Shown here: positions 33,801-39,800 of the stretch, one piece after another
Numbering within the stretch: the stretch's first letter is position 1
Layout: each line of letters begins with the position of its first letter
Notes under the pieces: model-generated
What the model was told of the DNA's origin: nothing
Database searches by the model: none
What the model saw: the letters and a program-made list of their open reading frames with translations, nothing else
DNA from: Hormiphora californensis
Lineage: Eukaryota; Animalia; Ctenophora
DNA: 64,000 bases
Assembly: GCA_020137815.1 (NCBI GenBank)
Contig: CM035354.1
Location: forward strand, 806,001 to 870,000
Direction: 5' to 3'
Position numbers and translations under genes: made by a program

Positions 33801-36800
33801 AGAGAGAGAGAAAGTGAGAGAGAGAGAGAGAGAGAGATAGAGATAATATGGGTGAAATGAGCATCCTGATGAGGGTGATCGAGACATATAATAAAGAATT
33901 TGCTATCATTACATTGCTATTTTTATAACTTCCTGTTCAATCACACGGTAATGTGCTTTATTCCTTTCCCCATCTCTCCCTAGACCACTTTCGTCATACA
34001 GAGGTCTAAATGATTAATATTCCTCATATATATGTTATACACGTATACCACTCGAGCGCGAACATATTCGTCCACACACGTTTGCTCATCATGCCTCGCT
34101 TCTTTTCTCCCTCTCTCTCTCTCTCTCTCTCTCTCCCTCTCCACCCTCATTCTTGTGTAAGCTCTACACGAAGCAACCTAGCTCAAACAGCTCCCGCACA
34201 TAGATCACTCTCTTCTTCTCTTTCTCTCACCATCTATCACTCTCGAAACCCCTTGTCTTGGAGAGACAGAGGGCGGAGTAGAGAGAGATAGAGACAGAGG
34301 GGGAGAGATAAAGCTAGTAATAAAGCTAATTTTCTAATGAGGCTGTATAGTGATTGCAGCTCTGGTGATTCTGCGTGAGTGTAGGTGCAATAGGCATGAA
34401 CCAGAGAGAGAGAGAGAGAGAGTGTGTGTGTGAGAGAGAGAGAGAGAGAATATAGGATGAACCAGCTATCTAGCCGGACCGAAAGTAGAGAATAAATTAT
34501 GAACTATACTTTGTTCGAGAGATGAATATCGCTCTTTCGGGCTTGCGTAAGCTCACACCGGGCCGAAGGAGAGCCGACAGACTGAGAACATGTCAAACAG
34601 CTATCGATCAGATATTGCCACGAGAGTTGATCTAGCAGTACAGCTGAGATCTTTACTTGACAAATAACATAAAATATATCATCTCTCACAGATGATATGA
34701 GATGAATGTTAGTGAGAGAGATAGAGAGATAGAAGAGAGAGAGAGAGAGAGAGGGAGAGAGGGAGAGAGAGAGAGAGAGAGAGAGAGAGAGAGAGAGAGA
34801 GAGAGAGAGAGAGAGAGAGAGAGAGAGAGAGAGAGAGAGAGAGAGAGAGAGAGAGAGAGAGAGAGAGAGAGATACCGTATAGACACATGTGTAGACGTGC
34901 AGAGAAAGAGATTGTTCCGGAGAATATCACACATTATATGGCACGTGGCAGCTCCTTGTTACACATGTCCCCTGGTGTAATACCAGTACATGATGGTGAT
35001 AAGGTGGCAATCAACAATCCGGACTTTTGATTGCCACCTTGTCATCGGACTAGTCCCACAATCAGTGGAATGTTTTCTCCAGACCCCATTATTCCCCATC
35101 CTGTTTGAAACCTACATTTGTTTAACAGTTCCTCCCTCTGCAAGATTCATTCCATACTGTACAATATCAGTATTATATAGTCCACATTTTGCACTGTGTG
35201 TGTTCAGTACACTCCTCCATTTTGCTTGCTAGGTGCTCTGTTTTTTGTATACTACTGCAGTCCCTCCTTCTCCCCCTTAATCTTCAATATATCGGTGTCC
35301 CTTAACTATATAACTAAATGATTACTCATTAACTAATTAATCAGTCTTCTTATTGAAAGGTGTGAACCAATGCCATGGTACCTAGCTCTGACGGCTGATA
35401 AACTAGTTACCAAGTTTGCACCTTGTTGTAACACATCCAAGTGCAGCTGCATTGACACACAGCTTAATCATATTTCTCATGGCATTTTATGAAACTTTTT
35501 TATACTTCTCTCTCTCTTTCTCTCTCTTTCTCTCTCTCTCTCGTTCTCTCTCTTTTTCTCTCTCTTAGCGTTAGTTGTGATAATTGGCAATTAATGCACT
35601 AGGAAAGCAATTACGGCAAATCATATCACACGCAGGACAGTCCGTCTTATCCATCAACGACATCTTCCTCTCTTTTTTCTCTCTCCCTCTCTCCCTCTCT
35701 CTCTCTCTCTCTCTGTATCGTTGATCTCTTGTTAACGAGTTTCCCAAGAACCACCAAAAGACGGATCAAAAGCAGCACGATCCTATTTTAGTTGAGAGAG
35801 AGAGAGAGAGAGAGAGAGAGAGAGAAAGAAAGAGAGAGAGAGAGAGAGAGAGAGAGAGAGAGAGAGAGAGAGAGAGAGTGAGGATCACGTGGCGATACTT
35901 AGCTATCCTTGGACTTCCGTGAACACACTCAAATATATTCTCGTTCTGTTGTTTTTAGATCGTCCTCGTTCTACGCATATATATATATTTCTGTTCTGGC
36001 CTGTTTTAATCGACCATTAAACCACCCCACTTGCTTGTTACACTGCCTACCGACTATCCCTCTTATTATATTAGTTCTAGTATTTTGATATACAACTTGT
36101 GTTTCAATCTGGGCATGAAAAGAGTAGGAACATCAACAGCAATGTTTTTTAGTGTTTTTAATTTGACACCCACTCTATTTTGTAGCATGTCAGAAGAAGA
36201 GGGTGGTGATGGTGGACTAGGGGACATGGTCCAAACCGAGGGTGGGGAGGGAGGAGGGGGATCCAGTTTAGAGTCAGCCCCACTTGGAGGTGAAGGTGGA
36301 GAGGGAGCTGGGTTCGGAGAGGCAGGTGGTGGAGGAGAGATGGAGGGAGGAGAGGAGGGAGCACCACACCCTTCCCTTGCTAACATCCTAGAAATGGGTT
36401 ACCCGGGGGAATGGACATGGCTGGTTGGTATTGGTGTAGTGGTAACTATTGTTATGAGTGTCCTCTTCATCCGGGCATTCCTGGCGCACAAGAAGTACAG
36501 CACAAAGCACACTCTCCAGTTTATAAGCACGATGGGTATACTCATGGTGTACCCTCTCTATAGTCTCATGTACACCAGTGGAATGCTGATACCACGTGCA
36601 AACTCAAAGTGCACCTTCATCGCAGAGACTTACGAGTCGCTCTCCCTCCTCCTCTTCCTCAAGTTACTCATGGTCTACATGGGAGGGAAGAGGGCGACTG
36701 TGAAGCGGTTAAAGGGTCAGAGTGTGCTCCTTAACTCGCCCCCGTTCTGCTGTCTTGGTCTCATACCTCCAGTAAAGTTCAGCGCCTTTTACCTCTTCAT

Positions 36801-39800
36801 CAATGAGATATTCGTGGCGCAACTGATACTGATAGAGTTGGTAATGGGCTACATAGACCTGCTAATGAACATGGACGGTAGTAAGACATACCCCGCTGCA
36901 CTAGTAGAAGAGACCTACTCACACGTGTTTCACGGTATCGCCCTGGGATCCCTCCTCCTCGCGGTGTACGGTCTGAGCTCAATCTACCACTGTGCGGAGA
37001 AGGAACTGAAGCACTACAACATCTTCAAGAAGTTTATCAGCTACAAGATAGTAGTTACCCTGGCAAAGGTCCAAGATATCCTCTTCACCGTCCTGTCCAA
37101 GAATGAGGTGTTTGGGAAGGTGGACAAGGGAGCATTTAGCACTCATCTCAGGCACCACATGTGGGCGTCAACCCTCACAATTATAGAGTGTACTATAATC
37201 TTCCCCTTTGCCTTGAGAGTCTTCCCTCTCACTGACTACCCCTCACACCACCCCGAGGGGTTGGAGGAGTTGGAGGAGGTGGAGGGAGGGGAGGGTGGAC
37301 AGCTGGTTCCTGTAGAGGATGAGAAGAGGTCGGTTCTCTTCCTAACTGATTCCCTCCTCTCCACATTCTCATCTGGGAAGTTCACCGGGGATCTGACATG
37401 CACCAAAAAGGGCCTCTACAGGCTGAGTGACATCCGGAGGTTTGCCTCGGAGCTGCCCTGTCATGACTACGTGGTCGTCTCAGCGGGGATCCACGATCTC
37501 TACACCTCTAGGATATCAGTGGATCAACTGATAGGGTTTAGCGTTGACTTCTACCAAGAGTGCCTCATCACTTGCCCTCATACCAAGTTCATCTTTGTAT
37601 CCCTCCTACCGACAGGGTTCGAGTGGCTGAATAACACATCAGAGGATTATAACAGCTACATTTTCGAGTTGTCCCTAAGGTTCCCTAACCTGTTGTTCTA
37701 TGATAACTATCGTCTAGCTGGGAAGGATATTCTTCAGGAAGACGGCATTCATGTCACGGATTACACGGTGAAGTTCATTGCTCGTGCACTGGTAAGGGCA
37801 GTGACTAACCTATCACAGTGTTATAACGACCCTGCACATCCCTGGCCGCTTCGACCTACCTTTGCTCGGAAAGCAATGAACTTTAAAAGTTCGGAAAAGA
37901 ACAATGGACAAGCATAGAATTATCAGAGAGAGAGAGAAGGAGAGAGATTTTTGACAAAGAGGTGACCAGGGGACAGAAAGAGAGAGAGAGAAGGAGAGAG
38001 AGAGAGAGAGAGAGAGAAGAAGAGAGGAGAAAATAAACTTTGATTGTATACTTTTGTGTACATAATTTATTGTACCGTGTACACTGTACACGTAAAATGT
38101 GCTACATCATAGCTATCAATCTGTCTGTCTGTATGTGTGTGTGTGTCTTTATGTGTGTGTGTGATAACTTATAACCTGCCGATTTTAATAAAACCGCAAG
38201 CCATTTGTTGTGGGAATTAAACGGAAACAAAAAACACAATGACGGAGCGGCGGAGGGAGCGGAGGGAGATGCCTTAGAGAGAGGCATGCCGGACATAATA
38301 TACAGAGACCTGCATGTGTTAACAAAGTAAACCGGGGTTATATTATAGGAATTAGGATACCAGTGAGAGAGAAAACAGCAGCTGGATTATCTTACCTTTA
38401 CACTCGGGAAGTTTACTATCGAACACGTTCTTAATGCCATCATTAGTGACACACACCACGGTTGGGTTGGTAGGGGTCAGCTTGTAGCCGGTGTTACACT
38501 TCACTGATATGACGTCACCAGGTGCTACGTCACCCGCTACAATCTTCCCGTTCTCAATATCTGGCATCATTGAGTCCAGGCAGTTCCGAGCTGAGAGGGG
38601 TGGTGTGATCATGAGGGAAATATAGGGGGTGTTAGATGGGGGAATTGGGAGAGTGTAGAACGAATAGTTTTAGAATTGTTCACTTCCGAGGTATAGGGCT
38701 GCTGCTTCACACATGTACCTTTACATTCAGGAACTATGCTGGCACTCCACGTCTTCCCGTCATAAGAAAAGGTATCCTCAGCGTAACAAAACACATTGGT
38801 GGTAGGGGTGAGGTCGTACCCCTCATTACAGGACACCACCAGCTTCTCCCCGGGTTGGGTGGCCGACACCGACTTGGAGTTGGCAATTGTCGGGGCAGGA
38901 CAGTTCTTGGCTGGGGGTGGGAAATTATTATTATTTTAGTGTTTAATTTGGTAAAAGAAACATGGTGAACAAATTATAGCGAAAAGTTGTTTTGGGACGA
39001 ACCAAATTTAATGGCATCATGCCAGATCTGACAGACTTACCGGAACACTCCGGAATGGAAGGGGAGAAGACATCTCCGGCGATACAAGTTGCAGTTGCTA
39101 TGGTTACCCCAGTAGAGATCTCATAACGTGAATGGCATGTTAGGGTGACTGTTGTAGTGGGCGACACAGTGGATGCTGCCCCGGACAGCGTGGCGTTATA
39201 TCGAACAGGCTTAGGACAGTCCTGGGAGAAAAATGAGTAGAAATGAATATAATACATCTACTTTTTCAGTAGGAGTAAAGACACGGGTTAGTTAGAGTCT
39301 CATTTTATTGGCTGTGTTTTTCATGCTGGTTCCTGCCCGCCTAATAAGGGTTTGGGATGACGGTATACCGCCGCTAATACGGGAGGATACATACTGGGAT
39401 CATTGATCGGTAAACTCTCATGAGAGAAAGAGAGATGTTGAGAGAGGGCAATTGTAACGAATTGGGCAATTATCGAATAAGATAGTAATAATGTCGGTAG
39501 CTACTGATTCGATGTACTTCCTGTATCGTTCATACTTGACGAGACAGTTCGAACAACTTACATTTGGAACACACAGTTGTGCAGGCAGCTCTGGTTCAGT
39601 TATACTTGTCCTGACACACTTGACAACCCCCTGATTATTGACCACGTCTGTATCATCCACTGCTGTAGTCATTGTATAGTGTTCATCACACCTGGTGAAA
39701 ATTGAGAGATATTAGAAATAGTACAATAAGTATTGCTCGTCGTACAGAGATTAGAAATGGTACGAAACAGAGCACGGATTCTTGACTTGATGTCATCAAA

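Follow-up and report, generated by a model that had tools for sequence, protein, structure and literature searches.

To our knowledge, few proteins of long interspersed nuclear elements (LINEs) are known to have been domesticated. In the closest described cases, exons from the first open reading frame (ORF1) of a LINE are fused to host genes, as in Lyosin (MYL4), L1-RFX5, NUP42-L1 and USP4-L1 (PMC12129022). Here we describe a gene within a 64,000-nucleotide window of the genome of the ctenophore Hormiphora californensis (assembly GCA_020137815.1, contig CM035354.1, positions 806,001 to 870,000 of the forward strand), to which all coordinates below refer. A single coding exon on the + strand (36187..37917), recognised from its open reading frame, Pfam matches and homologues, encodes 576 residues that join an OSTalpha/TMEM184-family domain to a domain of the SGNH fold. 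Homology indicates that the SGNH domain very probably came from a LINE retrotransposon, by capture out of its ORF1. The reading that we favour, with moderate confidence, is that in this conserved ctenophore gene it now serves as a tethered, non-catalytic binding module in the cytosol.

As in Lyosin, L1-RFX5, NUP42-L1 and USP4-L1, the LINE ORF1 part forms the first or last coding portion of the host protein, and Lyosin is under purifying selection (PMC12129022). Those fusions, however, involve L1 coiled-coil or RRM exons in alternative isoforms of vertebrate genes, with no mention of an esterase or SGNH domain in the accessible text of that report, whereas the ctenophore gene codes for a membrane protein and holds the esterase domain of ORF1 within a single coding exon. 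The arrangement also resembles the esterase-type ORF1 proteins of CR1, L2 and RTEX elements such as ZfL2-1, in which the SGNH domain likewise stands at the C-terminal end (PMC3905857). It differs in that the donor family of the ctenophore fusion has an AlkB domain before the esterase, which is not mentioned in the accessible text on ZfL2-1 (PMC3905857), and in that the copy in the window has become a fixed part of a host gene, where it is no longer under catalytic constraint. AlkB capture is known from an orchid Gypsy element and from plant viruses (PMC9289625). Outside Repbase, subscription papers and supplements, which the search did not cover, no literature was found, among the papers listed and judging by titles and the opening of abstracts, that describes this fusion or a LINE ORF1 with AlkB, nor any paper on ctenophore SGNH proteins. 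Repbase may hold notes of CR1-type elements with AlkB.

The frame runs unbroken from an ATG at 36187 to a stop at 37917, as the preliminary description of this sequence had stated, and the in-frame fusion of a PF03619 domain with an SGNH-fold domain is genuine. Right before the ATG, a pyrimidine tract and an AG at 36184-36185 (36170..36186, + strand) form a possible splice or spliced-leader acceptor, for which reason 'single coding exon' is a safer wording than 'single exon'. An N-terminal stretch that is acidic, Gly-rich and weakly conserved in the alignment (36187..36366) precedes the PF03619 Solute_trans_a domain (36427..37239, residues 81-351), a variable linker (37243..37326) and the SGNH domain (37327..37884), all on the + strand. 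The first AATAAA 3' of the stop (38032..38037, + strand) is a candidate polyadenylation signal, judged by its sequence, and a second lies at 38187. With the SGNH half alone as query, eight protein clusters (P0002-P0009) were found among 1016 candidates to carry PF03619 in front. The linker is indeed acidic, as first noted, but it is not conserved: it shares only 4 to 7 identities per 25-28 aligned positions with P0003-P0009, and from DYPS to LFLTDS it measures 30 residues in the window copy and 45-54 in the remaining fused rows except P0002.

The named fusion-bearing clusters are those of Pleurobrachia bachei (98% identical) and Mnemiopsis leidyi (KAL5260617.1), and the gene is not restricted to one species. 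Against P0003-P0009 the SGNH half is 55-68% and the membrane half (residues 111-352) 69-75% identical; over the nine fused rows the mean pairwise identities are 72% and 79%, and 78 of 185 SGNH positions are invariant. The junction is bridged in two further studies, by a 1101-nt contig of run X7 (second study) that spans at least 37200-37858 and by a 151-nt contig of run X6 (third study) that reads 37275-37425 with 0 differences at a depth of 2.2. Both contigs cross a weak AG|GT donor at 37329 unspliced. In runs X1, X2 and X5 the share of sequence continuing into unlike flanking DNA is 0, and no second copy lies within the 64-kb window. A misjoin, a haplotype-specific or high-copy repeat insertion, or a transcript that ends early or splices the SGNH part away had been raised as possible sources of error. 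The 37329 donor and the fact that no run among those listed is recorded as RNA would favour an artefact of this kind, but with the same fusion in eight clusters from several sources, bridging contigs from two studies and no second copy in the window it is hardly credible, and an assembly artefact was rejected.

Pfam and phmmer found no significant SGNH match when run on the SGNH half of the window copy alone. The fold is recognised from a model of 37321-37914 (198 residues, 141-row alignment, pLDDT 93.2), for which Foldseek returned PAF-AH, CE3 and TesA (E about 3e-7, best 2.7e-7) and VIA returned SGNH hydrolases, with a best Z of 16.6 and an rmsd of 2.3 A over 163 residues. As modelled, the C-terminal domain has the SGNH alpha/beta fold, in agreement with the original assignment. 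Its motifs also stand where they had been placed: FLTDS begins at residue 385, with the Ser389 codon from 37351, AGIHD at 433, with His436 (37492) replacing the block III Asn, and DGIH at 519, with Asp519 (37741) and His522 (37750). They are followed by a WPLRP motif (37843) that is common to LINE ORF1. By alignment, Gly409 is the likely block II position; four of the nine rows have Gly there, which is seldom seen in the donor family.

When 1.84 billion representatives were searched for relatives, 191 proteins reached E 0.001 or better, and the best 150 of them were examined. Of these 149 were new, and an AlkB-type domain precedes the SGNH domain in 93 (71/76 and 22/73); 3 of the 149 have another host-type domain, and the remaining 53, many of them short, have the SGNH domain only or nothing. 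The AlkB and SGNH layout thus occurs in at least 93 clusters at 50% identity. One such protein is encoded on a metagenome contig of 6935 nt (L001) as an ORF1 of 688 residues at 170-2236, with the layout coiled-coil-like, AlkB and SGNH. After a further 547 nt there follows an ORF2 of 1236 residues with a Cys-rich start, an endonuclease and a reverse transcriptase. By its sequence, L001:170-6494 is a complete LINE with an AlkB and SGNH protein as ORF1, which supports the retrotransposon origin of the esterase that had been suspected from the outset. The SGNH part of L001 is 30% identical to that of the window over 204 columns (E 4e-24) and shares its terminal WPLR motif. The metagenome search gave four loci, with a whole-query match in L001 only; L002-L004 match the AlkB part only, and L002 looks bacterial. 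In quick trees of the SGNH domain the fused domains group together within the AlkB-bearing proteins, as one clade (SH-aLRT 99) that has a long stem and short tips. No remnant of ORF2 was found in the window by tblastn with the L001 ORF2 at E 1e-3, no sign of a recent LINE was seen as sequence running into other flanks in X1, X2 and X5, and no relatives of P0023 or of alignment A1 were found among viral contigs.

The capture may be pictured as follows. By the simplest route, a 5'-truncated LINE copy would have inserted, in the same orientation and in frame, into the stretch that encoded a disordered tail in one OSTalpha/TMEM184 paralogue. The last ORF1 domain and its stop would have become the new C-terminus while ORF2 decayed, and the event would predate the split of Pleurobrachia and Mnemiopsis.

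Several observations on the donor family stand apart from this argument. The AlkB dioxygenase of L001 has its HxD motif, and short tandem repeats occupy the first 110 nt of the contig. P0102, P0108, P0128, P0132, P0137, P0139 and P0131 are ORF1-like and have an SGNH domain without a Pfam AlkB match, P0131 with a decayed AlkB by eye. In P0165 a reverse-transcriptase-like piece, again by eye, is joined to a partial SGNH domain, probably through a merged gene model.

In the membrane half, the match to PF03619 covers residues 81-351 and profile positions 3-267 of 267 (E 3.9e-30, 105.5 bits against a curated cut-off of 24.9), which confirms the OSTalpha/TMEM184-type domain first proposed. The accompanying count of seven transmembrane helices is borne out in part: a single-sequence model of the whole protein, used for the helix count only and of low confidence (pLDDT 39), has seven long helices between residues 73 and 345, while a simple hydropathy scan resolved only some. 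The profile also matches solved human OSTalpha (E 3.5e-6), in which Arg241, Arg244 and Gln260 bind bile acid and steroid sulfate (PMC13346981). In a distant, hand-read alignment these residues correspond to His, Glu and Lys; the steroid-like substrate of the preliminary description is therefore unsupported, and a bile-acid-type substrate was rejected. The gene further differs from OSTalpha in having fewer cysteines in the loop that carries the palmitoylation of OSTalpha. For TMEM184, transport itself has been termed a hypothesis (PMC13346981). A further search for relatives gave 11 close ones, without any that is named as OSTalpha or TMEM184, and an unfused paralogue (P0203, 48% identical) ends in a plain tail. 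At 37018-37087 a short X9 contig matches with 10 differences and has unlike flanks, and perhaps stems from a divergent PF03619 paralogue.

Proteins of the PF03619 family, which include OSTalpha (SLC51A), TMEM184 and yeast Hfl1, have a cytosolic C-terminal tail, and in Hfl1 this tail is the docking site for Atg8 (PMC6279349). By analogy, the SGNH domain is probably cytosolic, as had been supposed, and lies at the site where the family docks its partners; it differs from these proteins in that a folded domain of 190 residues takes the place of a plain tail. TMEM184 relatives are located, in the accounts accessible, on endosomes, vacuoles or lysosomes. A complex prediction of membrane and SGNH domains, made without alignments and with controls not folded, yielded no usable score (0.00).

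A multi-pass membrane domain combined with an SGNH domain is also found in OatA/OafA and CASD1, and the C-terminal domain of OatA is among the VIA fold matches (Z 14.6). In those proteins the membrane part is an acyltransferase and the SGNH domain faces outwards or the lumen. In the ctenophore protein, unlike these, PF03619 is the sole Pfam match of the membrane half, no acyltransferase family being found at E up to 1, and the SGNH domain is probably cytosolic. The analogy drawn initially does not carry over, and membership of the OatA/CASD1 group was rejected.

In the window copy Ser389, Asp519 and His522 are present and His436 stands where the oxyanion Asn belongs. Its Ser-Asp-His triad does hold, as reported initially, but the retention of catalytic residues is not a property of the family: Ser, Asn and His are all intact in only 2 of the 8 orthologue clusters (P0002-P0009) as against 88 of 90 AlkB-bearing rows (Fisher p 7e-7, a value that overstates independence, since the rows are related). 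Across the nine fused rows the block I Ser and the block V Asp are invariant. The block V His is kept in five rows and replaced by Asn or Arg in four of the eight clusters, that of Mnemiopsis included, and the block III Asn is present in six rows, with His or Ser in the others, two of which are clusters beyond the four that lack His. Mapped on the tree, His has changed 3 times and Asn 2 times in the fused clade, whose branches sum to 2.06 substitutions per site, compared with 6 His or Asn changes on 91.1 substitutions per site in all other rows, two of these in another host fusion; in the fused clade the two residues change about as fast as the average site. Six of the eight clusters lack His or Asn, yet their SGNH domains remain 62-68% identical to the window copy. 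In addition, 28 positions do not vary across the eight clusters but have residues that are rare (<15%) in the donor family; they include the loop that follows the Ser and the final helices. Loss of Ser, Asn or His abolishes hydrolysis in the S. rimosus lipase (PMC10779480), as does H282S in ZfL2-1, a slow but real esterase whose active-site mutants still bind liposomes (PMC3905857). SGNH folds without catalytic residues are found in the OSK domain of Oskar and in insect PAF-AH homologues (PMC3905857). Those are soluble and are not described in the accessible text of that paper as retrotransposon-derived, whereas here the loss is mosaic across species. P0017, P0167 and P0168 are short SGNH-only proteins, sister to the fused clade and with Gln at the His position; they may stem from a split gene model, be fragments or represent a paralogue that stands alone.

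These patterns make a non-catalytic role of the fused domain fairly probable. In the fused form Asp519, the loop that follows Ser389 and the helices at the C-terminus do not vary while His and Asn drift, from which we infer that the old pocket or a nearby surface probably binds a small lipid-like ligand or a partner protein. Such binding would control the activity or trafficking of the transporter, with the SGNH domain taking over the docking role of the family's cytosolic tail. Distinct variants listed inside the ORF are all synonymous (68 of 68, with 37 of 37 in the SGNH half; of the single changes possible there, 23% would be silent), these being the best-supported 40 rows of each of two lists, beyond which 69 and 22 further rows lie.

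Apart from these further rows, a number of observations weigh against this picture of a captured, non-catalytic binding module. Ser and Asp do not change, P0004 and P0009 keep the full set of Ser, Asn, Asp and His, and the window copy has its whole triad and has lost only the block III Asn; some lineages may thus keep activity. The fused domain is less basic than its donors (median net charge +2 against +5), which would weaken any charge-driven binding to membrane. The LINE context comes from one metagenome contig, in a subclade other than that of the fused domain, and the deep branches of the SGNH tree are weak. P0002 differs from P0001 at 1 SGNH residue and at 3 residues of the membrane domain. 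The X6 library is labelled RNA-Seq but is possibly DNA, and no RNA-recorded run shows a junction transcript. One orthologue (P0201) ends early within the SGNH domain, possibly by reading into an intron, and another (P0202, on a 2107-nt contig) ends just before it.

The same SGNH family occurs on other host proteins, on at least one and possibly three. A 3'-5' exonuclease-domain protein ends in it in Mnemiopsis (KAL5263182.1, P0101) and in Bolinopsis (XP_063694449.1, P0179, RefSeq); the two are 60% identical, keep Ser, Asn and His, and have P0066 as nearest AlkB-bearing relative. The domain also follows a metallo-beta-lactamase/DRMBL part in P0098 and P0166, both without Asn and His, and a RAI1-like part in P0133, all unverified gene models. 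A profile search for longer proteins scored 7995 candidates and gave 15 matches, which are not a census of fusions. A tree that unites the four fusions in a single clade is rejected (AU p 7.3e-7 on 46 chosen rows, in groups that were set by the N-terminal domains after an earlier tree had been inspected).

Of the other functions considered, the one closest to the preliminary description is a coupled transporter and esterase, whose membrane domain would move a solute while an acyl group on that solute is hydrolysed or transferred by the SGNH domain in the cytosol. It draws on Ser389, Asp519 and His522 in the window copy, on Ser and Asp in nine of nine rows, His in five of nine and the full set in P0004 and P0009, and on the slow activity of the related ZfL2-1 ORF1 esterase (PMC3905857). 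Nevertheless, with the catalytic set broken in six of eight clusters and intact in 88 of 90 donors, coupled transport and deacylation is unlikely as a conserved function, all the more as the domain remains well conserved where His or Asn is missing, both change at about the average-site rate in the fused clade, and the steroid-binding residues of human OSTalpha are unmatched. Chance fixation of the domain on a tail that tolerated it, with retention for folding or protein stability only, would account for the drift of the catalytic residues, for the variable linker and for the existence of the unfused paralogue P0203. This is very unlikely given that conservation of the SGNH half comes close to that of the membrane half (72% against 79%, with 78 of 185 positions invariant) and that all 37 of its listed variants are synonymous; a dispensable C-terminal domain would moreover be expected to gain stops.

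The nuclease folds of all three further partners motivate another proposal, that of an anti-retrotransposon bait: the captured domain would bind LINE ORF1 particles and tether them to the endosomal or lysosomal membrane, and on nucleases would aim those enzymes at LINE RNA or DNA. In its widest form, ctenophores would repeatedly and independently have made the AlkB-LINE ORF1 esterase domain a C-terminal plug-in, on a transporter-family protein and up to three nucleases, that acts as bait or address tag and brings LINE particles to nucleases and endolysosomal membranes. The rejection of one origin for the four fusions, the endosomal, vacuolar or lysosomal location of TMEM184 relatives and the domain-swapped dimer in which the ZfL2-1 esterase crystallises (PMC3905857) are consistent with it. 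The binding of ORF1 particles is putative, however, and ZfL2-1 ORF1 dimerises via its coiled coil, a part that was not captured here (PMC3905857). Lyosin, itself an L1 ORF1 fusion, stayed out of ORF1p foci (PMC12129022), retroelements themselves can carry an exonuclease together with a GDSL domain (PMC5408684), the gene models behind two of the three nuclease fusions are unverified, and the short branches of the fused domain indicate slow evolution, unlike that of a bait in an arms race. Both the proposal and its widest form are accordingly doubtful, a little more so than a coupled transporter and esterase. If true, the coat domain of the retrotransposon would have been turned into a defence against it.

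The ORF1 domestications encountered in the accessible literature are vertebrate L1 RNA-binding exons, and the ctenophore gene represents an old, conserved capture of an ORF1 esterase domain. Its active site is found in nature in a full state, with Asn lost and with His lost, depending on the species, and through this series the long-standing question of what an ORF1 esterase does apart from catalysis becomes testable. A folded cytosolic handle on a PF03619 protein could reveal its ligand or partners, and the gene draws attention to a family of LINEs with AlkB in ORF1.

From splice signals, the fusion gene is predicted to lie wholly inside, and antisense to, a 5.6-kb intron (32799..38395, - strand, phase 1 at both ends) of a predicted gene of several exons that combines many sushi repeats with a CUB-like part and probably a membrane anchor (24370-41628, - strand). 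Nested genes are common in Hormiphora, where 2357 have been counted (PMC8527503), which makes this location an ordinary one. Elsewhere in the window, Pfam identifies an uninterrupted papain-family protease ORF with an I29 propeptide and a ShK-like domain (45121-46527, - strand) and two uninterrupted 7TM GPCR-like ORFs (10767-12167 and 53285-54484, both + strand), and in the ORF list tandem repeat arrays at 6678-7852, 26434-27916 and 50384-50807 yield long spurious open frames.

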